Shown here one piece after another: positions 24,711 through 55,746 of a stretch of 64,000 nt of DNA. The notes under the pieces were generated by a model. The model had not been told where the DNA came from, ran no database searches, and worked only from the letters and a program-made list of their open reading frames with translations. The position numbers were made by a program, and so were the translations under genes. Position 1 is the stretch's first letter. Every line of letters begins with the position of its first letter. This stretch comes from a virus (Duplodnaviria > Caudoviricetes): IMG/VR virus record IMGVR_UViG_3300047160_004775, positions 1,162 to 65,161 of that record; one strand, 5' to 3'.

Positions 24711-25326
24711 CTTGGAGCTCCTTCGCGACGATGGCCTTCAGCCCCTGGATCTGGCTCGCTCGGGCCTGGAGGAGCTTGAGTTGCTGAACCATATCGACCT
24801 GGATGTTGAGGCGGTGCATCGCCTCCCACCAGGCCGCGTCCATGTGCTCGCCGGTGCAGAACCGGTAGAGGCGCTCGCAGGAGCCCTGGAAGCGTAGCGC
24901 GCCCCACTCCAGGGTCATGGTTCCCGGTTGCCGGCTGATCTGGCGCAGGAGCTCATAGCGGAGCTGCATCTCGCTCTCGACGCCCGTCAGACCGAAGCGC
25001 GCGAGGCTGGCGCACACCTCATCGACCGGCCGCAGGATGACGGCGAACTTGGCCTCAGGCATCATCCGGCGTATCAGCCGCCACGCGAAGGCCGCGCCGG
25101 TTTCGCACGTGCCGGCGAGCTCGAGGTTCAGCCGCCACGCGAAATCCGCCGGTGTGTCACACGTGACACCGATATCGTGACCCACCACGCGGCCGGGCGC
25201 GCCCAGGAAGGCGCTGAGCCACGCCGAGCGAGAACGGGGCAGCGAAAACACCAAAAACGGCGGTTGCTCTGCGAGCCTATCGCGGCAAGATGCGACTACG
25301 TTTCTCACAAGAGATACCCATGGCAA
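24703..25326 (-). CDS. sulfotransferase-like P-loop protein (start uncertain)
   Basis: FLVFSLPRSRSAWLS PAPS-loop-like motif; AKFAVILRPVDEVCASL. Confidence 0.75.
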   Translation of the reverse strand: MPWVSLVRNVVASCRDRLAEQPPFLVFSLPRSRSAWLSAFLGAPGRVVGHDIGVTCDTPADFAWRLNLELAGTCETGAAFAWRLIRRMMPEAKFAVILRPVDEVCASLARFGLTGVESEMQLRYELLRQISRQPGTMTLEWGALRFQGSCERLYRFCTGEHMDAAWWEAMHRLNIQVDMVQQLKLLQARASQIQGLKAIVAKELQDA

Positions 25327-25820
25327 ACATTCCGACCGCAGACCGCTTTTGGGCTAAGGTCAAAAAAGGCGATCCAGGTGAGTACTGGCCGTTTATCGGG
25401 CACGTAGGACCTGGCGGCTACGGTGCCTTTTCGCTCAGCAGCAAACCGAAGAGGGCGCATCGGGTCGCGTGGCTGCTGACCTATGGCCCGATTCCCCAGG
25501 GCGAGGGCTACCATGGGATGTGCGTTCTGCACCGCTGCGATTTTCGTGCCTGCTGCAATCCAACTCATCTTTTTCTTGGTACGCAGGCACAAAACAACGC
25601 CGACAGATCGGCAAAAGGCAGAAGCAGCCGAGGACACCCCACGAGCGGCCCGCGCGCCAGGGCTAACTTGACCGAAGATCAAGTGCGAGCAGCCTTTGCG
25701 ATGAGGGCCAGCGGGATTTTGTGCCCAACGGTCGCAAGGCACTTTAGCATTACCGTCCACCAGATGCGGGACATCTGGCGCGGACGCTGCTGGGCACATC
25801 TGGGCCTGACGTCTAAATAG
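25320..25820 (+). CDS. HNH homing endonuclease, antisense to the virion operon
   Basis: RFWAKV, AHRVAW, VLHRCD..ACCNPTHLFLGT..QNNAD. Confidence 0.9.
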   Translation: MANIPTADRFWAKVKKGDPGEYWPFIGHVGPGGYGAFSLSSKPKRAHRVAWLLTYGPIPQGEGYHGMCVLHRCDFRACCNPTHLFLGTQAQNNADRSAKGRSSRGHPTSGPRARANLTEDQVRAAFAMRASGILCPTVARHFSITVHQMRDIWRGRCWAHLGLTSK

Positions 25821-25822
25821 TT

Positions 25823-26158
25823 TCATGGCGTCATCAGCCTTCCGGAGCCGAAAAACGCCAGCACGCCGTCGACAGACGCTGCGGCCTGGATGGTGTCGCC
25901 CACCCCCAGGGTGTGGCCGATCAGTTGCCAGACGTCCCACGACTCCAAAGGCTGCAACTGGCGGGTCGGGCTGATGTTGTTCGAGGGGCCGTCAGAGCCG
26001 CTCGCGGGCACCCACCAGATCTGCACCGAGTAGGGCGTTCCGGCCTGCGGATTGGAGACCGTGATCTTGTCGATCTGCGTTCTTGAGGTCGCGGTGTAGT
26101 AGACGACCGCGACCGCGGTGAGGAATTGGGGCGCCCAAAGAGGTTGGATTGTGACCAA
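25823..26158 (-). CDS. small virion protein
   Basis: 111-aa beta-rich ORF; TTG start with GGAG RBS. Confidence 0.7.
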   Translation of the reverse strand: MVTIQPLWAPQFLTAVAVVYYTATSRTQIDKITVSNPQAGTPYSVQIWWVPASGSDGPSNNISPTRQLQPLESWDVWQLIGHTLGVGDTIQAAASVDGVLAFFGSGRLMTP

Positions 26159-26185
26159 GGAACCAGGCTCCGAGAGTTCTCAGGC

Positions 26186-26202
26186 GGCGCGGTTCCTTCG
26201 CC
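26186..26202 (-). promoter_or_regulatory. 17-bp intergenic motif, copy 2
   Basis: Identical to 9977-9993. Confidence 0.55.
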
Positions 26203-26252
26203 GATGTCGCATCGCTATCACGGTTCGGTCGCGCAAGTCACGCCCAAGGCCA

Positions 26253-27068
26253 CTAGCCCCAGATGTAGCTCACGATCACGTCGTCCACGCCGACGAGGAA
26301 CGTGAGGGGATAGGTGTGGTCCATGTACTGCCGCGGCACGGTGAGGTAGCGATCGACGTAAGATCGCGCGCCCTGGGGCTCCTGATAGACCGGAAGGATG
26401 TTGGCAGGGTGGGCGAAGTCCTGCACGAAATGCGGCCGGCGCGTGAGACGCTCGGGAAAGACCTGCGCGCCGAACGGATGGTAGGGCGTCGTCTGCAGCG
26501 GAAGCGGTGGGCCGGAGTACCACTCCCGCAACTTCTGCCAGCGGCCGTCAGGGATCGGGAGCGGGTTCTCGTAGTGTCGGCGGACGTTGAAGGGCTGCGG
26601 GACGATGACCGCGTAGGCAATGAACTTCGATGTCGCGGAATAGCCCCCCACGGCGTAGATGCGGCTCGGCGTCTGCCAGATCCAACCGGTGCGCACGCCC
26701 ACTTCCCATCGCCAGGGCTGCGGGTTCGGGAAGTCGTAGTTGTACGCCGGCAGCGCGATGACGTTCGACGTACCGGAGACCGTGGCTGTCTGGGGCGTCG
26801 GCGACGTCGAGTCCGTCGCGGTCACGGACCAGTTGTACGTTCCGACCGTCGTGCAAGTGCCAGATACAACGCCCGTCGAAGTATTAAGTGACAGGCCGGT
26901 GGGTAAGCCTGTCGCGGAATACGTGTAGGGGGCAACTCCACCGAAGGCGACGAAGATAATATTTACGACTTCGCTTAATCGGAACGTGGCGGGCAGCGAA
27001 CCGCCCAGCGACATCCCCGTCGGGATGGCGGCGACCGGAGCCGATGCTACTGGACCAAAGACGGGCAT
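26253..27068 (-). CDS. virion protein with putative Ig (He_PIG-like) domain
   Basis: GGVAPYTYSATGLPTGLSLNTSTGVVSGT motif. Confidence 0.8.
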   Translation of the reverse strand: MPVFGPVASAPVAAIPTGMSLGGSLPATFRLSEVVNIIFVAFGGVAPYTYSATGLPTGLSLNTSTGVVSGTCTTVGTYNWSVTATDSTSPTPQTATVSGTSNVIALPAYNYDFPNPQPWRWEVGVRTGWIWQTPSRIYAVGGYSATSKFIAYAVIVPQPFNVRRHYENPLPIPDGRWQKLREWYSGPPLPLQTTPYHPFGAQVFPERLTRRPHFVQDFAHPANILPVYQEPQGARSYVDRYLTVPRQYMDHTYPLTFLVGVDDVIVSYIWG

Positions 27069-30157: not shown

Positions 30158-30789
30158 CAGGACCGATCTCCCACAACCGCGAGGCCGAAGGGCCCCTTCA
30201 TGCCGTTCAAGTTCGTCGGCGCCACGAGATCCAGGTAGTCGACCTGTCCGCGCAGGTAGGTGTTCGCCGTCATCGCGCACACTGCTGTGGTTTGCCCCGT
30301 GTGCCAAGTCGCCGTACCGACGGGGTTTCCGTCGATGGCCAGAGTGAAGACGGTATCGGCCCCCGGCGCGGTGCCGACGACGCCCCAGCTGCGGCCCGCG
30401 GTGATCGGGATACGCCAGTTCACCGGCGACGGCGCCCGCCCCATCGTCGCGCCGAGCGTCATGGTCGAGATGTCGCCCTTGGAGAACAGAACCCCAAAGG
30501 TGTGGTCCGGGGCCTGCCGCGGCGTCGTGTAGGCCCGCATGAGCGCCTGGTCGGCGGCGTCCTGGGCGATGGATTCCGCGCCCCCCGGACCGATGGTCGC
30601 GCCGCCCGGTTGCTCTTGGACGATGATGTCGATGATGCCGCCGCCGCCCTGGATAGCCGCCCACATCAACTGCAGGAATTCCATCGCCGCCGGCGTCAGC
30701 ATCCCGTTCGCGCCGGTGAAGGGGAAGTTGAAGACCGGCGGCGGGACTGGAAACGATGCGATGACGGGGTTCTGCGGGTTCTGAGGCAT
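30154..30789 (-). CDS. tail-associated protein
   Basis: TGATG-coupled to the gp10-like gene; C-terminal beta domain resembles that of the 9253 ORF. Confidence 0.7.
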   Translation of the reverse strand: MPQNPQNPVIASFPVPPPVFNFPFTGANGMLTPAAMEFLQLMWAAIQGGGGIIDIIVQEQPGGATIGPGGAESIAQDAADQALMRAYTTPRQAPDHTFGVLFSKGDISTMTLGATMGRAPSPVNWRIPITAGRSWGVVGTAPGADTVFTLAIDGNPVGTATWHTGQTTAVCAMTANTYLRGQVDYLDLVAPTNLNGMKGPFGLAVVGDRSW

Positions 30790-32198
30790 CAGGGAAGGCC
30801 CGAGATGTCGGCGTGCGCCGCGATGATCGTCCGCGGGACCGGGTCGGAGACGTTCAGCATCCACGACATCTGGAAACCCTGGCCCTGGCTCATCCACCGC
30901 AGCCGCCGCTGGTATTCGCCGATCTTGCCCATCGACCGCCAGGGCTGCTGCATCGACCACGTCATGCCGCCGTCCTTCGATCGCTGGAGCATGATCTGCG
31001 GATCCGACCCCTGGCCGTTCGGGAGGCCGACGCCGGCCTGCACATCGAGCTCGAAGCGCGAGCAGAAGATCCGCTTGCGGTCGTGGTGCTGATTGACGGT
31101 CTGGATCTGCCCGATGATCTGGTTGCCGTACTCAGTGTAGGTGGTCCAGTCCACCACTCCGATGTCGCCGCCCTGGGTATCGCCCACCAGGAGGGTGTTG
31201 TAGGCGGCCAGCGGATAGGCGCCGCGCCAGCCGCCCAGGCTCGCGAACCCGGCGTCGAAGCTGTCGCGCTCGTGCCACTTGCCCGTCGCGATGTCATAGC
31301 AGAACGTCGCCTGCGCGGTCGGCAGGTACATGAAGATGAGCTTGTGGCCCTGGATCGTCAGGTGCGTACACACGATCGCGCTGAGGTCTGTCTCGCCGGC
31401 CAGGATCGTCTCGATGGGATGGGTGGAGACCCGGATAGGCACGTTGGCCTGCAGGCGGTAGAAAATCCGGTCGTTGGCCAGGAAAAACAGGGCGGAGTCG
31501 GCGAGCAGGATGGTGTGCGGCGAAGAGCACCCGTAGGGGATCACGCCGCCGGCGTAGCGCTGGAAGGGGAAATTCGGTGTGCCGGCGTCGTACCAGAGCT
31601 CGATGTGCGAGGTCGTGAAGACGTAGAGCAGTTGCAGGTTCTGCGCGGTGGCGACCACCTCGCCAGGCATCGCTTCGGCGCTGGCGAAGTCCAAGGCATC
31701 GTAGGTGAGGCCATCGTATAGCGCCGACAGGAACCACTCGTTCGTGCCCTTGCGGTCGAAGATGAAGTACCCGTCCATGAACGTGACGGTGTTGCAGGGG
31801 TAGAAGGCCGAACTCGTAATCGGCTGGAGGCCCGAGCCGCTCGTGTAGATCCACCCGCCAATGCCGTTCACGATGCACATCTGCTGCCCGTTGTCGGACA
31901 TCGACACCGGACCCGCGCCGGTGATCCCCGTACCGACGCGCACCGCCGTGCCGCTCGCCGAGACGCTGTAAACCTCCGAACCCTGGACGTAGTACGCCAC
32001 GTCGTTGAAGAGCCGGGATCCGCGGCTTGGCGCGGAGCCCGCCGTTCCCAGCGCTCGGATGCCCGGCGTCGAGAAGAGGGGGGCCTGCGATTTGGCGTCG
32101 GGCGGCTGGCGCTCCGTCATGAAGTTGAGCAGCCGAGAGTTGATCAACTGCGGCGCCCGGCTGCGCGCGCTCTCGATCGCCAGGAGGATTTCCGCCAC
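30789..32198 (-). CDS. packaged DNA stabilization/tail hub protein, P22 gp10-like
   Basis: 469 aa; DGYFIF, FASAE..PG, FELDVQAGVG...DPQIML..S.DGG.TWS motifs. Confidence 0.88.
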   Translation of the reverse strand: MAEILLAIESARSRAPQLINSRLLNFMTERQPPDAKSQAPLFSTPGIRALGTAGSAPSRGSRLFNDVAYYVQGSEVYSVSASGTAVRVGTGITGAGPVSMSDNGQQMCIVNGIGGWIYTSGSGLQPITSSAFYPCNTVTFMDGYFIFDRKGTNEWFLSALYDGLTYDALDFASAEAMPGEVVATAQNLQLLYVFTTSHIELWYDAGTPNFPFQRYAGGVIPYGCSSPHTILLADSALFFLANDRIFYRLQANVPIRVSTHPIETILAGETDLSAIVCTHLTIQGHKLIFMYLPTAQATFCYDIATGKWHERDSFDAGFASLGGWRGAYPLAAYNTLLVGDTQGGDIGVVDWTTYTEYGNQIIGQIQTVNQHHDRKRIFCSRFELDVQAGVGLPNGQGSDPQIMLQRSKDGGMTWSMQQPWRSMGKIGEYQRRLRWMSQGQGFQMSWMLNVSDPVPRTIIAAHADISGLP

Positions 32199-32201: not shown

Positions 32202-33173
32202 CTACTCCGTGTCGTACATCCACGAGTCCATGCCGAACTGAATCGGCTCGCTCTCGCGGTCGTAGGAGGTCAGGAGGTCGAAGTAGAAGCCGGCGCGTTC
32301 CTTGATCCGGTTGTACGTGGGCTCGGGCACCGATTTGCCCGGCGTGAGCTCGAGCGCTAGGTTCCAGAGGATCGCCGAGGCCCATTCCTGCGGGAAGTCC
32401 GAGGTGTTGGTGGGGTCCACGTAGTCTTGGATCGAGCGATAGCCCGTGAAGCGCACCGCCCACGCGCTGGTGTTGGCGACCGCCCACACGTAGAGCAGCC
32501 CGGTGTCGCGCCGCGGCGAGTAGAAGAACTGCGTGGGCGTCCCCGGTGCGGTGTTCTTCTGGGGCAGATCCTCATACTCCTGACGCGACATCACCGTCAT
32601 GGGGATCTCGGTCATGCTCGACAGCGTGAGCAGCCTGGCCTTCGGGAGCTTCAGCACCCGCGGGGCGATGGACGACGGCGGATAGGCCAGCACATAGGCG
32701 CCCGACACCGCCGCGCTCGGCAGATCGGCGGCGAGCGTCACGACGTTGCCGGCCGGCGCGCCGTTGGCGGTCGTCCAGAAGGTCGCGCCGTTGGATAGGA
32801 TGACGCCGAGGTTGATGCCGCTGGTCACGAAGGCGGCGTTCTCGAGCGTGATCGTGCCTGCGCCGGCGGCCGCCGGCTGCGCAAGCGTGAGCCGGGCCCA
32901 AGAATCCGCAAGGGAGCTCTGATCGAGGGTCGTGCCACCCAACTGGTACTCGGCCTGGAGCGGCTGGAGGAACTGGATGTACTCCTCTTCCGTCCAGACG
33001 TGCAGGCCGGTCGCCTCCCAGGCCTTCACCATCGCGTTGACGGTGAACTGGCCCTCCTCGTACATCGCGGCGGTGGGCTCTTCGTCCTCGGCGATTATGT
33101 CCATCTTGATCCACGCCATGCGGATCAAGGTGGTGATCGGGGGAGTGAAGTTCGCGACGCCGCTCGTGGCCAT
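32202..33173 (-). CDS. head-tail adaptor, P22 gp4-like
   Basis: GQFTVNAMVKAW, GTPTQFFY, DFPQEWASAILWNLALEL motifs. Confidence 0.8.
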   Translation of the reverse strand: MATSGVANFTPPITTLIRMAWIKMDIIAEDEEPTAAMYEEGQFTVNAMVKAWEATGLHVWTEEEYIQFLQPLQAEYQLGGTTLDQSSLADSWARLTLAQPAAAGAGTITLENAAFVTSGINLGVILSNGATFWTTANGAPAGNVVTLAADLPSAAVSGAYVLAYPPSSIAPRVLKLPKARLLTLSSMTEIPMTVMSRQEYEDLPQKNTAPGTPTQFFYSPRRDTGLLYVWAVANTSAWAVRFTGYRSIQDYVDPTNTSDFPQEWASAILWNLALELTPGKSVPEPTYNRIKERAGFYFDLLTSYDRESEPIQFGMDSWMYDTE

Positions 33174-33644
33174 CTAGGGCTCCTGCGAGGCGGGCACGTT
33201 CATCGTGTCACGCGTGACAATGTTGCCTGCGGCCGCCGAATAGGGCAGCGGAGACGCGAGGGTAATGGCCGTCGAACTCGGCGCGCCGGAGACGGTGGTG
33301 AAGAAGTTCACCCCGTTGTCCATCATGATGCTGATCTTCACGCCGGCGTAGAACGGCGACGTGTCCTCGAGTTCCAGCATCGTGGCCCGCGCCGCCGCAG
33401 CCTCGGAGGTCTGGACGAAGACCGGCCCGATAAACTGATTGGGGGCGAGCGGCCGGGGCTCGGGCACGGACTGCTTGTCCTGCACGCCCCTGACGAGATC
33501 CTGCGGCTGGCGGGGTTCCCAGCGGGCTTCGTCGACGATGAGCCCGGTCCATTCCTTCTTCGTCCGCTCGGCGCGCGTCGGGAAGCCCGTGCGGTCGTCC
33601 GTGCGGTAGAAGGAACCCGGTCGGTAGTGAAGGTCGCGGCCCAC
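33174..33644 (-). CDS. conserved podophage virion protein
   Basis: DDRTGF...WEPRQPQDLVRGV.D.QSVPEPRP; GGGGAG RBS. Confidence 0.7.
   Translation of the reverse strand: MGRDLHYRPGSFYRTDDRTGFPTRAERTKKEWTGLIVDEARWEPRQPQDLVRGVQDKQSVPEPRPLAPNQFIGPVFVQTSEAAAARATMLELEDTSPFYAGVKISIMMDNGVNFFTTVSGAPSSTAITLASPLPYSAAAGNIVTRDTMNVPASQEP
33207..33218. repeat. palindrome GTCACGCGTGAC
   Basis: Exact copy; extends to TGTCACGCGTGACA. Confidence 0.95.
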
Positions 33645-35335: not shown

Positions 35336-36256
35336 TCAGACGCCGGGCGTCCCAAAATACGAGCGCCAGTCGGTCACACCGCAGCTGAAGCGCATGTATT
35401 GCGCGGCCTTGGCGTTCTTCGTGTCGAAGTCATTGTCGGTGTCGAACATCGGCTTGTCCCGCCACAGGAACCGCGCCCCGTAGGGGCAGTTCGTGTGGAT
35501 GAACCAGGCCGTCGCCGACAGCAGGTAGTGGTTGGTCACGATCCCCTTGGGGAACATGCCCGAGGCCTTGATGACGTTGATCGCGTTCGTCGAGGTGTCG
35601 TTCTGGAGCACCGAGTTGACGATCCGCTGGGCGTCGTACCAGAGGGCCGGAGGGATGTTCAGGGACTGCGGGATCAGGGCGATCTTGTTGCCCCGGTAAT
35701 CCTGGGCCTGCATGATCTGGATCCCGAGATCTTCGATCGCGGTTTCCGACAGGTCGGCCGAGCTGGTCAGGACGTTGGACTGGTTCCCCACCATGGTCGG
35801 GTGCGAGTTCGAGATGAGCGCGGCGCCGTCGCCGATGGGATAGGAGGTGTTGAAGGCCTGGTTGAAGACGTTCGCGCCCACGATCTCCTCGGTTTGCCGG
35901 CCGGCGAAGGCCAGGGCCGACGAACGACGCTTCGAGACGGCTTCGTAGAGATCGTCGCGGAGCTCTTCGTAGGTGACGATGTAGCCGCCGGCGTAGGCCA
36001 CGTGGGTGTACCGCGTGACGGAGCCCTGGACTTCGGTGTCGTAGTTCACCGAAGCGCCCTGGTCCTTCTCGCGAAGCACCGAGAAGCCGCTGATTTCCAC
36101 GTCCTCCTCGTAGGCCTTGTCGGAGGTCTCGATGTCGAACCACTCGGGGTATTCCTGAACGTGTTCGGCGTACTGACGCCCCCACCAAGTCTTGATGCCC
36201 GGCCACAGAGCCTTTGGGTGTGCGCCGGTAGTGATAACGCCGCCGAGAGCAGCCAT
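35336..36256 (-). CDS. major capsid protein
   Basis: TSDKAYEEDVEISGF, RYTHVAYAGG, DLYE...ALAFAGRQTEE, TDNDFDTKNAK; follows the scaffold/decoration genes. Confidence 0.9.
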   Translation of the reverse strand: MAALGGVITTGAHPKALWPGIKTWWGRQYAEHVQEYPEWFDIETSDKAYEEDVEISGFSVLREKDQGASVNYDTEVQGSVTRYTHVAYAGGYIVTYEELRDDLYEAVSKRRSSALAFAGRQTEEIVGANVFNQAFNTSYPIGDGAALISNSHPTMVGNQSNVLTSSADLSETAIEDLGIQIMQAQDYRGNKIALIPQSLNIPPALWYDAQRIVNSVLQNDTSTNAINVIKASGMFPKGIVTNHYLLSATAWFIHTNCPYGARFLWRDKPMFDTDNDFDTKNAKAAQYMRFSCGVTDWRSYFGTPGV

Positions 36257-36283: not shown

Positions 36284-36898
36284 TTAGACGCCCGAGAGGC
36301 CCCAGATCTGCGGCAGGTTGAGGCGCACGACCCACACGGCGTAGTTCCCGATGGCGTTTTGCGCCCCACGCAGCAGACCCATGAGACGGACCTGATAGGT
36401 GGTGTTGGCGGATGAGGAGACGCTGGAGCTCTGAAGCTGCCAGGACGAGTAGCCCGTGACAGTCGAGCCGCCGCCTCCGGCGACGAGGTTGCCGTTCGCC
36501 CCAGGGCCCGTCCCGGCGGCGATGGCGCCCCCGCTGGAGTCCTCCTGGATGGCGAAAAGCTGGTTCGGGTCATCGGCGATCAGGCCGTAGGCCAGGACGC
36601 CGCTCTGCACGTAGACCGGGAGGTCGCGCGTGACCGTGAAGACCGCGTTGCCGTTCCCCTGCGGACCGTTGGTCAGCCCGATGAATGGCCCGGCGACCAC
36701 GTGGGTGGCGCCGGCGGTGGCGAGCCCGACGTTCGGGACACCGTTGGCGTCGCCGCCGCCGGTGTAGACGAGGGGATCACCCAGGAAGACGTTGGCGGCG
36801 ATCGCGGCGGGGAAGCACACCATGCGGCCTTGACCGCTGAATGGCGTCCCGTTGTCATTGATCGGCCGCAAGCCAAATGGAGCATTATTGTTCGACAT
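36284..36898 (-). CDS. capsid-associated (cement/decoration-like) protein
   Basis: NAPFGLRP, VFLGDPL, DDPNQLFAIQ; directly upstream of the MCP. Confidence 0.75.
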   Translation of the reverse strand: MSNNNAPFGLRPINDNGTPFSGQGRMVCFPAAIAANVFLGDPLVYTGGGDANGVPNVGLATAGATHVVAGPFIGLTNGPQGNGNAVFTVTRDLPVYVQSGVLAYGLIADDPNQLFAIQEDSSGGAIAAGTGPGANGNLVAGGGGSTVTGYSSWQLQSSSVSSSANTTYQVRLMGLLRGAQNAIGNYAVWVVRLNLPQIWGLSGV

Positions 36899-44060: not shown

Positions 44061-44265
44061 CAGCCCATCGGATTTGCATGGCTGGAAAATGCCAGCTGAT
44101 CGCGTTCCAGTTTCCCCATGTGATCCACGCTGTCGCCGGCGTATCATCCGTCGCTATCTGCCGGGCGAGCGCGAGGATTCGCACCTTTCCTTCTTCGTGG
44201 GTGAACCCGACGAAGTCGAAGGTGCGCCCGTCGGCCGTCTCGACGTAATAGCGGGCGGCGCTCAT
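44047..44265 (-). CDS. hypothetical protein
   Basis: ATGA-coupled; 72 aa. Confidence 0.6.
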   Translation of the reverse strand: MSAARYYVETADGRTFDFVGFTHEEGKVRILALARQIATDDTPATAWITWGNWNAISWHFPAMQIRWADERA

Positions 44266-44504
44266 GTGAACTCCGGCCCGACGACGCTGAAGGTCCCCTC
44301 GATCGTGACGGGGCGCACCAGGCGGTAACGCACCGCGCCGCACTCAGGGTCACGCGTGACATGGAGTTCGCACGAAGCCATCGCGTGCTTGTGCTGGTTG
44401 CCGATGACGAGCTCCTTCGTGCCGGTCGCCAGCATCGCCTCGATCAAAGCTCCCAGCCTGATGCGCTCGCGTTCATCGTTCCGGATCTCGTGCTGCGCGG
44501 TCAT
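44262..44504 (-). CDS. hypothetical protein
   Basis: 80 aa; GGGGG RBS. Confidence 0.6.
   Translation of the reverse strand: MTAQHEIRNDERERIRLGALIEAMLATGTKELVIGNQHKHAMASCELHVTRDPECGAVRYRLVRPVTIEGTFSVVGPEFT
44349..44360. repeat. palindrome GTCACGCGTGAC
   Basis: Exact copy inside a CDS. Confidence 0.95.
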
Positions 44505-44555: not shown

Positions 44556-44789
44556 CTACTCCAAAGCTTCTTCGATGCACTTCGCGACCCCCGAGAGCTT
44601 TTCGAGGCTGTCGTACTCGGTGGTGACGACGGCGCCGAGCAAGTGGAGCTCGAGTGAGTACCTGTCGGCTGATTTCCAGGTCTGCAGGGCGACGAACTTC
44701 GCCGGGTCGAAGATCAGGTGCGGTGCGCCGGCCAGTTCGATCACCACGCGCCCGTAGGCGATGCGGCGGCTAACTGTCACGCGTGACAT
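44556..44789 (-). CDS. hypothetical protein
   Basis: 77 aa from MSRVTV. Confidence 0.6.
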   Translation of the reverse strand: MSRVTVSRRIAYGRVVIELAGAPHLIFDPAKFVALQTWKSADRYSLELHLLGAVVTTEYDSLEKLSGVAKCIEEALE

Positions 44790-44991
44790 CGCGTGGTCCA
44801 AGCCCGAGCGCCCAAGCGCGCATGTCGAGCGCGGTGGCGAAGGTCTGCTGTTCGAACACTTCGCCGGATCCACGGCAGGTCGGGCACTCCCTGGCGACCA
44901 TCAGCACCATCGCGAAGTGGCCAGAGCCGTTGCACCAGGGACATGGCACAACGCGCAGGATAGGCTCTTCCAACAGCAGAGGACTGGCCAT
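44770..44991 (-). CDS. DnaJ-type zinc-finger small protein
   Basis: CPWCNGSG...CPTCRGSG. Confidence 0.7.
   Translation of the reverse strand: MASPLLLEEPILRVVPCPWCNGSGHFAMVLMVARECPTCRGSGEVFEQQTFATALDMRAWALGLGPRDVTRDS
44776..44787. repeat. palindrome GTCACGCGTGAC
   Basis: Exact copy overlapping the ATG at 44789. Confidence 0.95.
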
Positions 44992-47342: not shown

Positions 47343-47931
47343 GATCTTCCTCCACTGAAGGAGGGGCGGGGAGGAGCGTCTTGCCGGGCTTGTTAGTGGG
47401 GCGCCAGCCGGCGAACTCGCCAGCGATCCCGTGCCACGTCCAGCCGCCGCCATTGTGGTCGATCCACTGGGCCAGCACCACCTCGACCCACCGCAATTTG
47501 TCGTCGCCCTTGGCGTAGCTGTAGTTTTGATGGACGCAGCGAGCCCAGATCGGCGTCCCGTCTCGCGGCGCTTCTGACATGGGCCGCCATCCCCCTTCCT
47601 TACAGACAGCCCGCGTGATTGTGTCTGTATTGGCCGACGTGAGAAGGGCGATGATGGCGAGCTTGGCGTAGTCTTGGCCGGTGAGGATCGCCCAATCGGA
47701 CGCATCGTCCCAAGGCTGACGACGCAGGCCGTCCATGAAGCCGTCGTGCCACGCTTGGGCCAGCGCCAGCGCTTCCTTCAGCATCGGGTCCTCAGGCTTC
47801 CAGCCTTCACGGGCCAAGCGAGCAGCTTCAGCGGCGATTTCCCTAATGACCTGCCGGTCCATCATACGGGCGCCCAGCTTGATCCGAGCGGCCTCGTCAG
47901 CTCGGGCTAGGTCCAGTTCGTCGTCGGTCAT
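47335..47931 (-). CDS. hypothetical protein with DUF551-like C-terminus
   Basis: WRPMSEAPRDGTPI...WRP; GAGGAGG RBS. Confidence 0.7.
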   Translation of the reverse strand: MTDDELDLARADEAARIKLGARMMDRQVIREIAAEAARLAREGWKPEDPMLKEALALAQAWHDGFMDGLRRQPWDDASDWAILTGQDYAKLAIIALLTSANTDTITRAVCKEGGWRPMSEAPRDGTPIWARCVHQNYSYAKGDDKLRWVEVVLAQWIDHNGGGWTWHGIAGEFAGWRPTNKPGKTLLPAPPSVEEDRG

Positions 47932-48572
47932 GGTTTCCTCCTCTTCGAAAACGGCCGGCTCTGCATGGGCCGGTGGCCCTGGTCGAAGCCTCGGGACGGG
48001 ATCTTGCGCCGCGGCTCCTTGCGCTCGGCGCCGACCCGCATGGTGGCCTGGCGCTTCTCCTTGGCGCGCTGGCCTGCTTCTCGGCGCGTCTTCGGCCCGT
48101 GACAGTCGGAGCATCGCAGGCGGAGGTTCGAGGGCCCGAAGTAGGCGCGGCGCTCAACCCAGGGCAAGTGCGTGGTGCGCCAGAGCGGGACGGTGTGCTC
48201 GAGCTCTACGCTCAGGCTGATCTCGACTTCGCACCAAGGGCCCACGCACTCGCCCACGATCGGGCCGCCCTTCGTGAACCAATCCCGCCAGGGATAGGTC
48301 TGGCACCGGCGGTTCATGACGTGCTGATTGCCGCGCACGTGGAGCGGCTGCTCCCTGCAGTCCCAGCACCAGGGCCCGTCGCGATCGAGCACGAAGGCGT
48401 ACTGCACCTCGCGGCGCGAGTGGAGCAGGATCTCAAAGGCGCAGTCGGGTTCGGCGCCGCGGCCATCGTGCTTGGTGCGGTCCTTGCGGCCCTCGGTGAT
48501 CGGGTTCGCGCACCAGCGGCAATGGCGGTCAGGGACAGCCGGAAGGCGGAAGGAGCGAATGTTGGTCGTCAT
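47928..48572 (-). CDS. HNH endonuclease
   Basis: CRWC, CWDC, ELEHTVPLW...NLRLRCSDCHGPKT. Confidence 0.8.
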   Translation of the reverse strand: MTTNIRSFRLPAVPDRHCRWCANPITEGRKDRTKHDGRGAEPDCAFEILLHSRREVQYAFVLDRDGPWCWDCREQPLHVRGNQHVMNRRCQTYPWRDWFTKGGPIVGECVGPWCEVEISLSVELEHTVPLWRTTHLPWVERRAYFGPSNLRLRCSDCHGPKTRREAGQRAKEKRQATMRVGAERKEPRRKIPSRGFDQGHRPMQSRPFSKRRKP

Positions 48573-48589: not shown

Positions 48590-50953
48590 CTAGTAGCCAG
48601 TGTGATCGTCCCGGCTTTCAACTCCACCGTAGTCGGGGCGCTCCCAGAAGTCATCTTCGTTCTGCTGGATGTCGACCAGCGCAGGCGCGAAGTACTCCAC
48701 CATGCCGTATTGAAGGGCGTCGTGAATGTGGCTGTACTCGTTCTTCTCGGGCTTTTCGCTGTAGCGCTCGGGGCCCGCCACCTGGAGCCGCCGGCGGTGA
48801 TAGCCGCCCATGAAGCCCTTGCGGAGCATCCTGCAGCGCGGGTGCAGGATGAAGCTCGGTTCGCCGCCTGGTGCGAGGCGCAGCGGGCGGCGCACCGATT
48901 CCTGGCGCAGCGTGGGCTCTTGTGAGCGCGCGGCCTGGATGTTGATCCCCTTGGCCTGGAGGATGTCGAAGGCGCTGCGCTTGTCGGTCTCGTGGCGGTT
49001 CTCGCCCGCCGGATCGCCCCAATCCTCGATCTGAACCTGTCCCTTGAAGGCCCGGGCACAGTGATCCAGCACCACGTCCCCGAATTCGTCGACGCTCATG
49101 TTGTCGGAGGTGAGCTCGTCGAAAGTCAGCCATTGCCCTGTCGGAAGAATCTGGCTGAAGGCGCAGGCAGGGGTGAGACCGAAATCCCATGAGCGGATCA
49201 CCGGACGTCCCGGCACCGGGTCGGCCTTCCGGCAATGGAACGCGTCGTTGTACTCGGGGTAGACGAGCTTGCCCTCGACGATGAAGCCATACTTCCCGTC
49301 GACGTAGATCTTGTTCCACTCGGCCGCCTTGCCGGTCGAGAGGTTGGTGTAGTAGCGCCGGCCGCCAGGAAGGTTGCTCAGGTTCTCAGCGCCCGCCTCC
49401 AGGCCCCCTGGCTGCTTGAACAGCCGCGCGAAGCCCTTGGGGTGCTTCATCTCCTCGAAGAATTTGTACCACTTCGAGTCCGCATCCGGCGGGTTGGTGT
49501 CCATCCACAGGCCGTACCAGAAGGGCATGACGCAATCGCGCTTGGCGGGGTAGCGCCCCACGCGGCCCTGGAAGGCGTCGATCACCGCCCAGGGCACCTC
49601 GCGGGCCTCGTTGATCCAGCCGCCGGTGAGCTCGAGCGACAGGAGCTTCTTCACGTCGTCGGGCCGGTCCAGGGCCAGGAAGACGAGTTCGATCTCGGTC
49701 TTGTCGAAGGCCTTGATGACGTAGCTGTGCTTGTTCTCGACGTAGCGGCCGAAGTACTGCGGCGGGAACCATTGGAAGATGGTCTTGATCGTGGTGTCGC
49801 GGAGTTCCGGGTAGGTGTTCCGCACGACGCCCCAGCGGGATCTGCGCCAGCCATCGACGCCCACCGGATGGGCGAGCCCGCGGTTCACGATCTCGACGAC
49901 GCAGCCCGACGACTTGCCGCTGTTGCCGGTGATGAAGATCGTGTCCGCGCATCGGGCGACAAAGAACCCCGTCGGCACGATGAAGCAGTACTTCAGGCCG
50001 TCGTAGGCGCCGAAGCGGCTGATCTTGGTGGTATCGACACGCACTTGAGCGCGGTTCTTCGGGTTGTCCGAGGTCCGGATGTTGACCGAATAGCTGTCGC
50101 GCCACTCCTCGTTCTCATATTCCGTCCGGTGGATCGCTGCGCGGCGGCCGGTGGCGTGCGCCGCGTACTGGATGAAATCCGCATCGGCCTTGTGAGTGGT
50201 GAAGTAGCGAACCTCCTCGTGGTCAGCCAGGCCGTCCCAATGGGACATCTCGTCGAGCACGACGCTCAATTCTCGGCGAGAAGCGGTCCACCAGCGTTCG
50301 TCGAAACGTTTGCCTCGGTAGGGCGGATAGAACACGAACAGCGTCTCGTCTGGCCGGCGGGGATAGACGCGCTCGGCGAATTCGATCCCGAGGCGTCGGA
50401 GAAGAGCGCGGCCGCGCTCCTTCTTTCGCTCTTTCCGCAACGTCACCACCGCCTGATTGCCCTGGCGCGTGTAGTGCCCATCCGCGTGCATCATGACGGC
50501 GAAGCGGATCAGGTCGTCGCTCATGCCCAGCCCGTGCCCATCCGGTCCGACGAAGGTGGTGGGAATCGTCCGCTTAGAAGGGTGGCGCGCGATCTCAGCA
50601 GCCGTGCTCACGCTGAAGCGACCGGTCCAGTTGTAGTGGGGCACGCGATGCTCACCTGACAACTGCATGACGAGCGAGCCGCTGTCGAACTCGATGAACT
50701 CGGTGCAGGGGAGCACGATGTGTTTTGTCGGTTCGACGAACTCGATACGTCCGTCCTCGTGCCACTGCGCAACACGGTCGCCAGACTGGTAGTCGCACAT
50801 GCGCTTCCACCCCGCCGGCGTCAGGAACTCGGTGTCGAACGGCAGGCATCCAAAGGGGCCCATCAGCCCGCGGATGAAGCTGTCGTCCTCGCTGAACCGC
50901 TCGATGGTCGGGCAGTCGCGGTAGTCGTAGCGGACGTAGTGCGGTTCGGTCAT
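48590..50953 (-). CDS. terL: terminase large subunit (intein-containing)
   Basis: GPFG|SGKS Walker A, VVRNTYPEL, LSLELTGGWINEARE, WDFGLTPAC, HIHDALQY. Confidence 0.95.
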   Translation of the reverse strand: MTEPHYVRYDYRDCPTIERFSEDDSFIRGLMGPFGCLPFDTEFLTPAGWKRMCDYQSGDRVAQWHEDGRIEFVEPTKHIVLPCTEFIEFDSGSLVMQLSGEHRVPHYNWTGRFSVSTAAEIARHPSKRTIPTTFVGPDGHGLGMSDDLIRFAVMMHADGHYTRQGNQAVVTLRKERKKERGRALLRRLGIEFAERVYPRRPDETLFVFYPPYRGKRFDERWWTASRRELSVVLDEMSHWDGLADHEEVRYFTTHKADADFIQYAAHATGRRAAIHRTEYENEEWRDSYSVNIRTSDNPKNRAQVRVDTTKISRFGAYDGLKYCFIVPTGFFVARCADTIFITGNSGKSSGCVVEIVNRGLAHPVGVDGWRRSRWGVVRNTYPELRDTTIKTIFQWFPPQYFGRYVENKHSYVIKAFDKTEIELVFLALDRPDDVKKLLSLELTGGWINEAREVPWAVIDAFQGRVGRYPAKRDCVMPFWYGLWMDTNPPDADSKWYKFFEEMKHPKGFARLFKQPGGLEAGAENLSNLPGGRRYYTNLSTGKAAEWNKIYVDGKYGFIVEGKLVYPEYNDAFHCRKADPVPGRPVIRSWDFGLTPACAFSQILPTGQWLTFDELTSDNMSVDEFGDVVLDHCARAFKGQVQIEDWGDPAGENRHETDKRSAFDILQAKGINIQAARSQEPTLRQESVRRPLRLAPGGEPSFILHPRCRMLRKGFMGGYHRRRLQVAGPERYSEKPEKNEYSHIHDALQYGMVEYFAPALVDIQQNEDDFWERPDYGGVESRDDHTGY
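49922..50848 (-). mobile_element. 309-aa intein with LAGLIDADG-like endonuclease in the terL Walker A
   Basis: Begins CLPFDTEFLT; ends YCFIVPTGFFVAR...ITGN followed by Ser; internal MMHADG and HWDG blocks. Confidence 0.93.
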
Positions 50954-51345
50954 GAGCGCCGCGCCCAGCGCCGCGCCTTGCGCTTGCCGTTGCGGCTCAG
51001 TGGGGCCCCGGGTTTGGCGTAGATCGACGCGAGATAGATCACCTCGCAGGGGTACGGCCAGCGGTCGCCCTTGAGGTTGTTGCAGCTCTTGTGCGCCAGC
51101 AGGATGTTGGCGTCCGCGCGGCCGCCCTGGACACGGGGGAAGACGTGGTCGCGTGATGGCGCGCCCGAGTTGGAACCGTGGAGCTCCAGCGCGCCGCGCG
51201 CGAAGCGATCATCGCACAGGTAGCACCCATGGTCCTGGCGGTGGAAGATCTGGCTCTTGGACAGATTGACCGCCATTCCGATCATGTCACACGTGACAAT
51301 GCGCCAGGCGTCGAGCGCCCGTTGCGCAGCCGTGTTGAAGGTCAT
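50950..51345 (-). CDS. HNH endonuclease adjacent to terL
   Basis: CYLC...SRDHVFPRVQGG...NILLAHKSCNNLKG. Confidence 0.88.
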   Translation of the reverse strand: MTFNTAAQRALDAWRIVTCDMIGMAVNLSKSQIFHRQDHGCYLCDDRFARGALELHGSNSGAPSRDHVFPRVQGGRADANILLAHKSCNNLKGDRWPYPCEVIYLASIYAKPGAPLSRNGKRKARRWARRS

Positions 51346-52104: not shown

Positions 52105-52326
52105 TCAGAAGGGGCGCCGCTTTTCCCGGCGCCGCGGCGGGTTCTCGGTGTCACGCGTGACAGGGTGTGACGCGCGCCAGAGTTCGTGACGGACGATGCC
52201 CTCCATCGCGAAGGCGAGGGCGATGGTGGCCAGGGCGACGCACGCGCCGATCCCAACGCTGTTCCAGAACTGCGCGGTGCCGCTGAAGGCCGCAAGGCCA
52301 TAGAGGACGCCGGCGACGTATCTCAT
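52105..52326 (-). CDS. small membrane protein
   Basis: Two hydrophobic segments; ATGA-coupled. Confidence 0.6.
   Translation of the reverse strand: MRYVAGVLYGLAAFSGTAQFWNSVGIGACVALATIALAFAMEGIVRHELWRASHPVTRDTENPPRRREKRRPF
52150..52161. repeat. palindrome GTCACGCGTGAC
   Basis: Exact copy; extends to TGTCACGCGTGACA. Confidence 0.95.
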
Positions 52327-52547
52327 AGCCGCACCACCGTGTCGTAGAGCGCCCAGGACGCGTCCAGAGCCGCGCGCCATTTGCTCGCGAGCGCTTGGTC
52401 GCCCTTTTCCAGCGCTCGGGCATAGAAGGTCGCCGCGCCCTCGATCTGGGTTCGTGACATGGGGAGATCCGCCTTGATCGGCTCGAGCGCCGCGATGGCG
52501 CGCCGGCGGCGAGTTCGATAGGCGGCTTGGCGCTCTGCGTTCGTCAT
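52323..52547 (-). CDS. hypothetical protein
   Basis: MTNAERQAAYR motif; ATGA-coupled. Confidence 0.7.
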   Translation of the reverse strand: MTNAERQAAYRTRRRRAIAALEPIKADLPMSRTQIEGAATFYARALEKGDQALASKWRAALDASWALYDTVVRL

Positions 52548-53074
52548 CCTGCGCCCCTCTTCGTACCGGATCTGATGACCTGAAACACCACCGGCTGCGT
52601 GGGATCGCCCGCGTGCTCGATACGGTCCTGCCAGGGGAGCGAACCCTTGGCCTGCCCGCGGCGCCGATTGGTGAGCCAGATCTTCGACGCGCCCGGTTCA
52701 GGAGGATAGTGCTCGGTGAAGCGGGCGCGGATGATCTTGCCCTCGTGCTGGAAGATCTTCTCGGCCGAGTGTGAGTAGCCGATCGCGCGCTGATAGAGGC
52801 CGTGGGCGACATCAGCGTCCGCCTCGGTCTTCCCGCGCGCGAGTTCCCGGCCAAAATGCGGGTGCTCGCTCTTCCATCCGTTGAGCGTCGCCTCGTCGAT
52901 GCCGATGACCTCGGCCATCTCGGACTCGGTGCATCCGAGGAGGGCCATCTTGAACACGGCGAAGGGGAGGCCGTCGTGATAGAGGGGCGGACGGCCTGGT
53001 CCTGAGGGACCGCCGGTGCCGGGCGTTTTGGGTCGCAGTAGTCCCGGGCCTGAGGTTTTACGCTTCGTGACCAT
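52544..53074 (-). CDS. terS: terminase small subunit (start could be 53140)
   Basis: GRPPLY...LLGCTESEMAEVIGIDEATLNGWK...ADADVAHGLYQRAIGY...HYPP...KIWLTNR. Confidence 0.88.
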   Translation of the reverse strand: MVTKRKTSGPGLLRPKTPGTGGPSGPGRPPLYHDGLPFAVFKMALLGCTESEMAEVIGIDEATLNGWKSEHPHFGRELARGKTEADADVAHGLYQRAIGYSHSAEKIFQHEGKIIRARFTEHYPPEPGASKIWLTNRRRGQAKGSLPWQDRIEHAGDPTQPVVFQVIRSGTKRGAG

Positions 53075-53208
53075 GTTCCTGCGTGCCTGGTTCCTGGGCG
53101 CGATGGAGCCGTGGTGACATAGTTCGCCGAGATCGTCCACGGCGGAGGCTGTTGATCTTTACAGCTAAGCCGCTCATGGTGGGCGCGCCATGCTAGAGGA
53201 GACGCTCC

Positions 53209-53355
53209 ATGGGTCGGTCTGGACACAATGCGCTGGTCGGGATGGTCGGCGCCGCGGTGTTGCTGGTCTTCGTGCCGATCGCCGGCGCGGTGGGCGCCCT
53301 GATCAAGGCCGAGGCCGTTCACATGGCCCGGAGCATCGCGGCGGCGCACCGCTGA
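53209..53355 (+). CDS. 48-aa single-TM protein (antisense cassette)
   Basis: GAGGAG RBS, ATG, hydrophobic core LVGMVGAAVLLVFVPIAGAVGAL; not in the supplied ORF track. Confidence 0.6.
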   Translation: MGRSGHNALVGMVGAAVLLVFVPIAGAVGALIKAEAVHMARSIAAAHR

Positions 53356-53549
53356 TGGCCGTCGAGGAACGGCTCGATCTGACGCTGCGTATCTACCAGG
53401 AGGGCGTGATGGTGGCGCACCGCCTCGTCAGCCGGGAGACCGCCGCCGAGCAATTGCTCGCGCTGGTGAAGGAGCAGATCAGTGGTGACCTGTTCGTGCC
53501 GCTCGTGATCCGGGTGGATCCGGTCCAGCGCGTCACGATCCAGGACTGA
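53355..53549 (+). CDS. 64-aa protein coupled to the TM peptide
   Basis: TGATG overlap. Confidence 0.6.
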   Translation: MAVEERLDLTLRIYQEGVMVAHRLVSRETAAEQLLALVKEQISGDLFVPLVIRVDPVQRVTIQD

Positions 53550-53551
53550 CG

Positions 53552-53563
53552 GTCACGCGTGAC
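53552..53563. repeat. palindrome GTCACGCGTGAC (intergenic)
   Basis: Exact copy between convergent stop codons. Confidence 0.95.
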
Positions 53564-53568
53564 GGGGC

Positions 53569-53769
53569 CTAATTCAGCCCACCCCGGACCACGAAGTCAC
53601 GCGTGACATCCGACATCCACGTGCCATCGGGGAGGGGGCCGGCGACGAACCGCGCGGCGTCTTCCCAGCGGTGCACCGCGTTGCCGAACTCATCGAAGAG
53701 GTTGGTGACGGAGACGGTGACGTCGTCGAGCACGATCTTGTAGTGCGCAGCGAGATCCGGATCCGTCAC
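53569..53769 (-). CDS. hypothetical protein
   Basis: GTGA-coupled; 66 aa. Confidence 0.6.
   Translation of the reverse strand: MTDPDLAAHYKIVLDDVTVSVTNLFDEFGNAVHRWEDAARFVAGPLPDGTWMSDVTRDFVVRGGLN
53596..53607. repeat. palindrome GTCACGCGTGAC
   Basis: Exact copy 44 bp from the previous one. Confidence 0.95.
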
Positions 53770-53975: not shown

Positions 53976-54158
53976 CTACTTCCCCTTTTTCTTCCGCTTC
54001 TTGCCCTTGCGGTCGAGGGCGCGCTGGCCGGCGACATCGGCCTTTCTGTCCTGCGGCGAGCGCTCGTACTGCTTGAGCGACATGCCGAGGCGCTTCGAGT
54101 TCTTGCGGTCCTCGCGCTGGTCAGCCTTGGACCCCTCGAAGCGCCTGGCTTTCGCCAT
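53976..54158 (-). CDS. small basic protein
   Basis: FEGSKAD..ED...YERSPQDRKAD; K-rich tail. Confidence 0.75.
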   Translation of the reverse strand: MAKARRFEGSKADQREDRKNSKRLGMSLKQYERSPQDRKADVAGQRALDRKGKKRKKKGK

Positions 54159-54436
54159 CAGAGCTTGCCTTCCCGGCGGTGGTGGTCGTGGCCTCTCGGG
54201 CCGTGGTCGGGGGCGGCCTGGCGGGCGTGGGAGCCCTTTCCGCCGCCCATGCCCGGCGGGATCCCCCGGGCGCTGTCCTCGAGCTCCGGCTTGCGCCCCG
54301 TGTGCGCCACGGCGTCGGGGTGCATGGCGTCGCGGGTGGGATACGGATCCACGCCGAAGTTGCCCTTCTCCCCGGCGCCGGCCATCTGCTTGTGCTGGCG
54401 GATCGCCGGCTGCTCCACCTTCTTGCCACCGAACAT
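54158..54436 (-). CDS. small G/H-rich protein, first gene of the late transcript
   Basis: AGGAGG RBS; TGATG-coupled to the next gene. Confidence 0.7.
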   Translation of the reverse strand: MFGGKKVEQPAIRQHKQMAGAGEKGNFGVDPYPTRDAMHPDAVAHTGRKPELEDSARGIPPGMGGGKGSHARQAAPDHGPRGHDHHRREGKL

Positions 54437-54561
54437 AGCTTGACCTCCTGAAGTGAGCGTGAGCGCTCGGTCCGCTGGCGATTCGATAGCACGATTTGCG
54501 GGTTTCCTCGCCTGCCGGTGCGCGCTAGCGTAGCCGTGCTGGCTAGCCACGGAGGAACAGC

Positions 54562-54915
54562 ATGGCCCAGGTGATCAGGAACGAAGACCTCGAAGCTCTG
54601 GAGGCGGCGGGCAAGGAGCTCTTCGACCTCGCGATGTCGATGGCGGAGCGCTACACGCTGCTGGACGTGTCGGTGGCGCCTGAGGCCAACGAGGTCGCCG
54701 TGAAGGTCCAGGCGCTGGTGCTGGCCGCGAACGGGCTGCTCACCGGCGCGGCCCAGTCCGAGGGCATCACCATTGTGGGCCTCGGAGCCGCCTGTGGCTG
54801 CGCACTCGGCAAGTGCATCGGCGACCGCCGCGTGCTCTTCGCCGGCTTTCAGGATCAGTTCAAGCGGGCGTTGGACGAGGTGCGGGAGGCCGACAGGCCC
54901 AAAGGCACGGCTTGA
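54562..54915 (+). CDS. hypothetical protein
   Basis: GGAGGA RBS; 117 aa. Confidence 0.7.
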
Positions 54916-54939
54916 CCTCCGGTTGTGGCGTGCTACGGT
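54912..54939 (+). promoter_or_regulatory. putative sigma70 promoter
   Basis: TTGACC-16nt-TACGGT with extended TG; upstream of the HNH gene. Confidence 0.5.
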
Positions 54940-55048
54940 CAAGCTGCCACGACGACTCTGGTGCCTATGCTTAGCAATGCGACGCGGCGGCCGGACTGTC
55001 TCCATACCTCGGCGACGATGGCCGCGTGTATTTGAAGGGGGCGGCTCA

Positions 55049-55516
55049 ATGAAACGTTGGCCACGCTATGCGCGGTGGATCGCTCAGGCAAAGTTGGAAC
55101 GCCTTTATGACCTATGGGCAGCTATGCGCGGCCGCTGCCAAAGGCCAACTGACGCAGCTTTTCACAATTACGGGGGTCGCGGTATTCGCATATGCGAGGC
55201 GTGGTCTGATTTTCGCCAGTTTTCGGTGTGGGCGCTCGCCCATGGTTACGCGAGAGGGCTTACGCTGGAGAGAGAAGACAACAGCGGCAATTACGAACCG
55301 GAAAACTGCCGTTGGGCAAGTCGACGAGACCAAGCCAGAAACCGTCGCAACAACCATCGCCAGCTCGACGGAAGCCTTTGGATTGATGTCGCTTCCGCCA
55401 ACGGAATCATACCCGAAACCTTTCATTCTCGCGTATCGCGGGGATGGACGGCAGAGCGTGCGGCAACCGCGCCATTGCGGCCAGTAGGCGCGGCCCTAAA
55501 GCGGGAGGGCGCGTGA
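55049..55516 (+). CDS. HNH homing endonuclease
   Basis: RLYDLW.AMRGRC...[13 protein letters not shown]...[18 protein letters not shown]...QARNRR. Confidence 0.88.
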
Positions 55517-55746
55517 TGGCCCATGGGCGTCGAACCGGCCGAGGCACCACGTTCTCCGACGTGCGCCGGGGCAACGTCACGCGTGACGATCCGCAGATCG
55601 GCTATTCGCGTTCGGCCGGCGCTAGCTCGCGCCTGACGCAAGCCGAGTTGATCGCGCTGCAGATGCGGGGTGACCGAAAGCGCGACGCAACACCCGAGCG
55701 CAAGCCGACGCTTCGGCGCTTTTCGTGGGAGGACAGTGATGCGTGA
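55516..55746 (+). CDS. hypothetical protein
   Basis: TGATG-coupled. Confidence 0.6.
   Translation: MAHGRRTGRGTTFSDVRRGNVTRDDPQIGYSRSAGASSRLTQAELIALQMRGDRKRDATPERKPTLRRFSWEDSDA
55576..55587. repeat. palindrome GTCACGCGTGAC
   Basis: Exact copy; extends to CGTCACGCGTGACG. Confidence 0.95.

Follow-up and report, generated by a model that had tools for sequence, protein, structure and literature searches.

A palindrome scattered over the late genes of a caudovirus matches a putative array element in the replication-organizer genes of other phages

The question raised by this locus is which protein would recognize a 12-bp palindrome, GTCACGCGTGAC, that recurs over the packaging and head genes of a tailed phage. 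The DNA analyzed (hereafter "the window") is a stretch of 64,000 nucleotides with a GC content of ca. 66%, comprising bases 1162-65161 of the 65,161-bp virus record IMGVR_UViG_3300047160_004775 (Caudoviricetes), which is classed as "linear" and 99% complete; both ends lie within genes. A preliminary description of the DNA had listed seven exact and three one-mismatch copies of the palindrome and had offered three functions for it: a partition centromere, an organizer of packaging by the small terminase subunit TerS, or an operator network for a regulator of the XRE family. The feature is real and resides in the DNA, and its sequence properties indicate that it is almost certainly a protein site. 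A binder of the replication-initiator class is more likely than each of the three functions first offered.

All seven exact copies were found where they had been placed, as were the copies with a single mismatch (25156, 36623, and 51286), two of which (25156 and 51286) share the variant GTCACACGTGAC. The described extension to 14 bp was likewise present, with the 14-mer TGTCACGCGTGACA occurring at 33206, 44775, and 52149. The motif had been said to be confined to the middle of the window; no further copy with one mismatch or fewer occurs anywhere in the record, including the 1,161 bases beyond the window. All ten copies (seven exact, three near) fall within 25.1-55.6 kb, and simple arithmetic on this range (30.4 of 64 kb) yielded a P of ca. 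0.007. The claimed rarity by chance was borne out, as 100 dinucleotide shuffles contained means of 0.00 exact and 0.38 one-mismatch copies. Codon-preserving shuffles, also proposed in the preliminary description, left on average 0.26 of the four coding copies; by construction, this procedure retains the three non-coding copies. GTCACGCGTGAC is the top-ranking repeated 12-mer of the genome. The MluI site ACGCGT was found 14 times versus ca. 22 times expected (simple arithmetic), and 7 of the 14 lie within the motif. The near-copy at 36623 may be a chance near-match.

The copies are unevenly grouped. The densest cluster of the window (53532-53722) features seven GTCAC/GTGAC pentamers in 200 bp, and its full sites, at 53552 and 53596, are spaced by 44 bp; it is located 0.4 kb upstream of terS. 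The copy and half-sites at 52150-52190, past an open reading frame (ORF) of 74 amino acids (aa), constitute a weaker cluster, and the copies outside both clusters are solitary. Several sites are positioned 0-60 bp ahead of start codons. Repeated half-sites were also observed elsewhere in the window: the 8-mer GTCACGCG occurs three times (6131, 6191, and 6260; 60-69 bp spacing) within the Ig-domain gene, and CGTGAC three times near 63.3 kb (63267, 63332, and 63391).

Within genes, the exact copies are read as VTRD three times (33207, 44349, and 53596) and as SRVT once (44776). In its third frame, the 12-mer contains TGA on either strand, which leaves genes two usable frames and explains the frame pattern trivially. 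The assertion that the motif is DNA and not a peptide is supported by other phages, in whose pair-bearing genes the 12-mer encodes VTRD in 84 cases and SRVT in 63. Both frames are thus in use, and the conserved entity is the DNA. The VTRD reading also requires the arginine codon CGT, which accounts for 8% of the Arg codons in this phage. The preliminary description had argued the same point from a copy in a different frame at a start codon and from a single intergenic copy; the former stood (SRVT, 44776), whereas the non-coding copies number three (52150, 53552, and 55576). Its suggestion of a symmetric (dimeric) binder is supported by the two-frame reading, the forced use of the rare CGT codon, and a spacing in multiples of ca. 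11 bp, described below. An RNA hairpin or terminator was considered and rejected: the palindrome would allow only a 4-bp stem, no T-run follows it, and a terminator scan missed the sites.

The 12-mer was newly found not to be private to this phage; the novel aspect here is its dispersal. The 14-mer was present in at least 119 IMG/VR loci, ca. 40 of which had additional copies within 20-70 bp. The flanks (±100 bp) of the 119 loci listed contained a mean of 3.0 extra GTCAC/GTGAC pentamers against a background of 0.39, with three or more in 58 of the 119. A scan of 185,579 species genomes returned 58 loci at which two copies were 8-38 bp apart. These paired loci span Actinomycetota, Pseudomonadota, Acidobacteriota, and Planctomycetota, and the genera include Streptomyces, Microbacterium, Bifidobacterium, Stenotrophomonas, Caulobacter, Novosphingobium, and Pandoraea. 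In 89 of 113 distinct neighboring pairs, the distance departed by no more than 1-2 bp from a multiple of 11 (21-24, 33-36, 43-47, and 57-58 bp), as is predicted if proteins bind cooperatively along a single helical face. The arrays combine full palindromes, single half-sites, and GTGACGTCAC, which resembles a cAMP response element (CRE), and tandem repeats of a hexamer often come after them. A phage of 43% GC content (L174:7160-7290) carries this GC-rich 12-mer, together with half-sites, within its organizer gene, i.e. the motif is held against base composition. Five high-GC bacterial genomes (4-9 Mb) that bear array prophages had 2-4 copies each, chiefly the array itself, and a reversed control pattern was found 0-1 times; these five genomes do not support a host-wide signature. 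A literature search for the 12-mer produced one match, an unrelated paper on primers.

The arrays have a recurrent location. At the majority of the 77 pair-bearing loci, they lie 120-170 codons into an ORF of 250-430 aa that has a DUF1376 or related N-terminal domain. The canonical DUF1376 domain was recognized by our own hidden Markov model (HMM) in 25 of 77 cases; Pfam detected it in 12 of 35 and gave one additional DnaB_2 match. The layout of the array-bearing ORF is an N-terminal domain, a basic stretch of the type AERQRRxRER, and a VT-rich linker encoded by the array; one of nine downstream genes scanned by Pfam was DnaC/IstB-like. As judged from these sequences, over 70 phage or prophage loci have phased arrays of GTCAC/GTGAC half-sites in the linker of putative replication-organizer genes (DUF1376/YdaU-like, "O-like"), which is the layout of lambda O, and GTCACGCGTGAC is identical in sequence to their array element. 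Two organizers of one subfamily (L293:9383-10420 and L294:8340-9377) contain GTGACATGTCAC, in which the half-sites are reversed in order, twice per locus. No experimental replication paper on DUF1376/YdaU was found in the literature search.

Dispersal was also observed elsewhere. Including the window, 5 of 21 phage records have 5-7 spread copies, and a sixth has four. The other records concerned are G005 (seven copies), G002 (six), G001 (six), G021 (five), and G011 (four); the remaining 15 of the 20 other records have 1-3 copies, essentially in the array only. None of the 20 is closely akin to the window. Four of the seven copies in G005 are non-coding and located 18-106 bp ahead of gene starts (P = 0.003). 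Both G005 and G021 have an array in the early control region plus one full site in the linker of their organizers (38% identical), and these two phages have only this early module in common. The sequences flanking the motif are phage-specific (cct...ag in G005, ccgt...acgg in G011), which argues for a phage-encoded binder. The sites of G011 share a 20-bp palindrome, CCGTGTCACGCGTGACACGG, and one of its copies (L297, 620-720) is in the loop of a perfect 15-bp inverted repeat directly ahead of a gene start. The space that separates the GTCAC array from the leftward early operon holds different, AT-rich palindromes, namely GTACAA-N5-TTGTAC in G021 (L380, 7260-7330) and an ACTGAAT type in G005 (L268, 16540-16600); they are probably operators of the CI/Cro type. 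A tblastx match between the gene at 24703-25326 and the G005 organizer was discarded, as it was out of frame.

Table 1. Copies of the palindrome and landmark genes of the window
Feature	Position	Strand	Context
Exonuclease and RecT	1144-3686	+	
XRE/HTH_3 regulator	5236-5628	+	rival binder; 20 kb to nearest motif site
Ig-domain gene	5704-6420		
Helicase/methylase giant gene, 3,923 aa	10033-21804	-	
One-mismatch copy GTCACACGTGAC	25156-25167		in gene 24703-25326(-)
Head-closure gene	30789-32198	-	
Exact palindrome	33207-33218		VTRD frame, final 11 codons of ORF ~33641-33174(-); ATG of gene 32202-33173(-) 34 bp on
Capsid-like gene	35336-36256	-	
One-mismatch copy	36623-36634		coding strand GTCACGCGCGAC, VTRD with common CGC codon
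Portal	40097-42532	-	
Exact palindrome	44349-44360		VTRD frame, small ORF 44262-44504(-)
Exact palindrome	44776-44787		SRVT frame, ORF 44556-44873(-); immediately behind in-frame ATG at 44789
PhoH-like::TerL fusion	48590-50953	-	
HNH gene	50950-51345	-	
One-mismatch copy, variant as at 25156	51286-51297		5' end of HNH gene 50950-51345(-), directly before in-frame ATG 51285
Exact palindrome plus two GTGAC half-sites	52150-52190		non-coding, between 74-aa ORF and 89-aa gene (start 52093); then GC-rich hairpin
Orphan 74-aa ORF	52323-52547	-	weak second candidate binder
terS, terminase small subunit	52544-53140	-	rival binder; phrog_309, E 1e-27
GTCAC/GTGAC cluster	53532-53722		half-site 53532; full sites 53552 (non-coding) and 53596 (final codons, 66-aa ORF); (GGTGAC)x3 53704-53722
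Exact palindrome	55576-55587		non-coding, in plus-strand island, 60 bp past HNH/AP2-like gene
Replication-organizer gene P0121	58972-59904	-	DUF1376; candidate binder
Two DNA methylases	60675-62938		

The positions of the motif and of the principal genes are collected in Table 1. The minus strand carries nearly all genes between 5.7 and 64 kb. A plus-strand island (54562-56154) that is closed by a strong terminator at 56188-56210 is situated within this block; it is probably an inserted moron block, and its GC content is lower (0.57-0.59 at 55.0-55.4 kb). At least five genes encode HNH-type endonucleases (47928-48572, 50950-51345, ~55045-55516(+), 60110-60802, and 61459-61950), and the terminase gene has one such gene on either side. 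The 787-aa product of the terminase ORF matched a PhoH-like ATPase over residues 32-348 and has terminase homology from residue ~330 to 752. Small plus-strand ORFs at 53209-53549 (one of 48 aa and membrane-like, one of 64 aa; coding uncertain) have ends that may coincide exactly with the palindrome pair.

Across the loci, organizer-type proteins were the only class linked to the motif, and the link is loose. P0121 is the sole organizer encoded in the window (Pfam DUF1376, E = 3.7e-22). Its N-terminal domain matched a "primosomal protein" family in PHROGs, and residues 186-272 matched "replication initiation O-like / DnaD-like loader". A winged-helix topology was predicted for the N-terminal domain, with a block-mean predicted local distance difference test score (pLDDT) of 87-96 over residues 21-100; the best PDB matches were generic winged helices (ORC2, Cdc6, and DnaD-N, with Z of 4.3-5.6; Foldseek E of 0.2 or worse), and the model is indicative of the fold class, not the family. 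Across its two domains, P0121 shares 28% identity with the organizer of a Novosphingobium prophage, one that carries the array. The basic stretch that precedes arrays elsewhere is missing from P0121. A similar stretch (AERQ..YR.RRRR) opens the 74-aa ORF, which also has a half-site at its MSR codons and was the best match in the window to an HMM of the basic stretch (E = 0.048). A search of 1.8 billion representatives turned up a single small relative of this ORF, and the small proteins beside the sites had no match in Pfam, PHROGs, or the ESM Atlas. By our estimate, P0121 ranks first among the candidate binders and the 74-aa protein second.

We tentatively favor, at a confidence somewhat short of even, the reading that a phage-encoded protein of the initiator/iteron class docks at the sites and that these act as operators or roadblocks. 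According to this scheme, the array element lies outside the organizer gene, as the small cluster upstream of terS and as solitary palindromes (dimer sites) over the packaging and head genes. A phage-encoded dimer, with P0121 the first candidate and the small basic protein of ORF 52323-52547 the next, would bind these sites and would shut or pace late-gene transcription, as dimeric iteron-binding Rep proteins do at inverted-repeat operators. Alternatively, the bound sites could constitute a roadblock, or else a secondary site for the initiator, in the manner of gp38 at oriR of phage SPP1. Either effect would fit the confinement of the motif to the packaging and head region.

Several observations weigh against this initiator-class reading. 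Neither full nor one-mismatch copies occur in the P0121 gene (58972-59904), and none adjoins it. Over the profiled 51.5-60.5 kb, the GC minimum (0.55-0.56) is in the P0121 gene and just upstream, where there is no motif; the linker of the gene (59509-59600(-)) has an A-rich stretch and (TCACCT)x3-3.3 at a GC content of 0.55, and by its sequence this linker is a candidate for an unwinding element or for a true origin devoid of recognizable iterons. The 53.5-kb cluster, for its part, holds two full sites only and has no AT-rich neighbor (GC 0.61-0.69 over 53.1-53.8 kb). The motif is absent from two loci (L287 and L295) whose N-terminal domains are much like array-bearing ones and from the nearest named phage, Bradyrhizobium ppBeUSDA76-2 (44% identical N-terminal domain), which means that similarity in this domain does not predict the motif. 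Among the phages with spread copies, no organizer was found in the records of G002 or G011, both of which are incomplete. Non-coding enrichment in the window is modest (three of seven copies after the correction at 33207), and a consensus promoter scan placed no promoter beside the sites, as the GC-rich DNA gave nothing usable. Conservation in relatives, which the preliminary description had proposed as a check, could not be shown: 80 loci with a related portal, 1.2 Mb in all, contained one motif copy and no analogous palindrome. The portal-based scans (IMG/VR, metagenome contigs) reached relatives of at most 60% identity, and a megablast search of the phage against GenBank phages gave no match.

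A broader construction joins these elements into a self-encoding module that crosses phyla. The basic helix (~AERQRRxRER, with the N-x7-R arrangement of basic leucine-zipper (bZIP) basic regions) would read TGAC/GTCAC, and the array would encode the part of the protein that directly follows the helix. In some phages, a minority that includes this one, the module would be split into a small protein (ORF 52323-52547) and solitary dimer sites, with the outcome being a replication-coupled switch: the sites, increasing in number as the DNA is copied, could titrate the binder, or the bound protein could stall forks and thereby provoke concatemer synthesis. We regard this construction as speculative and unlikely.

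The rival explanations differ chiefly in the binder. Recognition of the palindromes by TerS, with the 53552/53596 pair as an assembly site of the pac or cosB kind and the other copies secondary, draws on real proximity: as originally pointed out, five of the ten copies are within 2.5 kb of terS. The pair itself is 0.41-0.46 kb upstream of that gene in a stretch of uncertain coding, and the HNH gene adjoining the terminase fits cos-type packaging. The other five copies, however, are 7-28 kb away, and the known TerS sites at pac and cos are local and, for the most part, lack symmetry. No homologue of the window's TerS, TerL, or portal is present in G005, G021, G002, G001, or G011, and in other phages the motif is found mostly inside a replication gene, not near terS. 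The motif is thus neither local to terS nor tied to a TerS family; the observed proximity stood, the role of TerS was not supported, and this rival is unlikely. The XRE/CI-type regulator, operating a network of the kind known from phiC31 or cluster A mycobacteriophages, fares somewhat worse and appears improbable. Its HTH_3 dimer would suit a 12-14 bp palindrome, many copies of one site are present (seven exact, three near), and a family with the identical TFQQVQKYE helix occurs also in G005 and G001, both of which have spread copies. That helix, however, is common among the XRE proteins of alphaproteobacteria. An exact copy within 10 kb was lacking at 78 of 80 IMG/VR loci that belong to the family, and the few copies were never beside the XRE gene; no site is near that gene in the window, either. 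In G005 and G021, the early promoters beside the XRE operon have the other, AT-rich palindromes.

A host protein could bind the motif, having been recruited by phages of many phyla to their origins and, here, to late genes. The identity of the 12-mer across phyla despite diverse N-terminal domains in the carrier gene favors this idea, as does the fact that no phage protein family is common to all phages with spread copies. Against it stand the five bacterial genomes, which are almost free of copies outside prophages, and the phage-specific flanks; we know of no universal bacterial protein of this specificity, as the DnaA box and parS differ. We judge a host binder to be rather improbable. The dispersed centromere of a plasmid prophage (like sopC of N15 or the KorB operators OB) is highly improbable. 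Dispersed short palindromes are the pattern of N15 and RK2, and the lost integrase mentioned in the preliminary description would fit a plasmid prophage, but no ParA-, ParB-, or ParM-type protein was detected by Pfam or PHROGs among the ~80 proteins scanned (a few small ORFs and the missing ~1% lie outside the scan). The motif is also dispersed in integrated proviruses and in G005, a phage with direct terminal repeats, and elsewhere it sits in replication genes. Finally, the solitary copies might have no function at all, being relics of recombination with array-carrying phages that were tolerated where VTRD or SRVT peptides or spacers allowed. Several are in genes without obvious logic (44349, and the imperfect 25156 and 36623), relatives lack solitary copies, and G005 and G021 are mosaic. 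Seven perfect copies against none expected, the rare CGT codon kept in the coding copies, the non-coding excess in the window and in G005, and the lack of any common flank past 14 bp that would mark copied segments all speak against relics, to which we give little probability.

Irrespective of this phage, one exact 12-mer is the apparent array element of organizer genes from Actinomycetota to Pseudomonadota. It furnishes a testable DNA target for the very large DUF1376/YdaU family, whose function is still annotated as unknown, and a simple sequence tag by which to recognize phage origins in metagenomes. If the organizer or a partner does occupy the solitary palindromes, an initiator-type protein would be acting genome-wide, as DnaA does on the chromosome, and replication would be coupled either to the expression of late genes or to the changeover to concatemers.

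Known systems resemble this one in part. Short palindromes scattered over a mobile genome are found as the centromere sites of N15 and the KorB operators of RK2, and the present sites share that arrangement; here, however, no ParB/KorB or ParA homologue accompanies them, and the motif is tied to replication genes in other phages. The conserved inverted repeats of phiC31 and the stoperators of cluster A mycobacteriophages are dispersed repressor sites, the stoperators being asymmetric and oriented. They are similar in that one short site occurs in many copies genome-wide, some of them inside genes, but they are tied to the immunity repressor, whereas the XRE regulator does not track the motif here. 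For iteron plasmids (pPS10 RepA, R6K pi, F RepE), monomers bind the iterons and dimers bind inverted-repeat operators. The motif would parallel this duality, as its half-site serves in arrays (at the putative origin) and as a perfect inverted repeat (a likely dimer site near gene starts); the plasmid operator is single and controls rep, while the sites here are many and none is at the organizer gene.

The layout of the arrays is that of ori-lambda, which lies inside gene O of phage lambda. More than 70 other phages have the same motif in phased arrays within the linker of an organizer gene, often with simple repeats after it, and the organizer of the window has an O-like C-terminal domain. The window departs from this layout in that its organizer gene has no copy, and thus no array in the initiator-gene linker, and in that the copies are mostly solitary palindromes over 30 kb of late genes. 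An array of the lambda-O type would have at least three sites in 100-200 bp and an AT-rich stretch beside it; the 53532-53722 cluster consists of two full sites together with one half-site and (GGTGAC)x3, and it has no such stretch beside it.

A partial counterpart of the late-region sites is known from SPP1, whose gp38 binds both oriL, located in gene 38, and oriR, which lies among moron genes of the late region (PMC6316719). According to a proposal for SPP1, the bound initiator stalls forks and so sets off the synthesis of concatemers, in which an exonuclease and an annealing protein take part (PMC6316719). SPP1 differs in having two compact origins with direct repeats and AT-rich DNA, rather than ten scattered sites with one small cluster and no AT-rich neighbor. 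It is alike in having repeats outside the initiator gene, in the late region by small inserted genes, and the phage described here also encodes an exonuclease and RecT.

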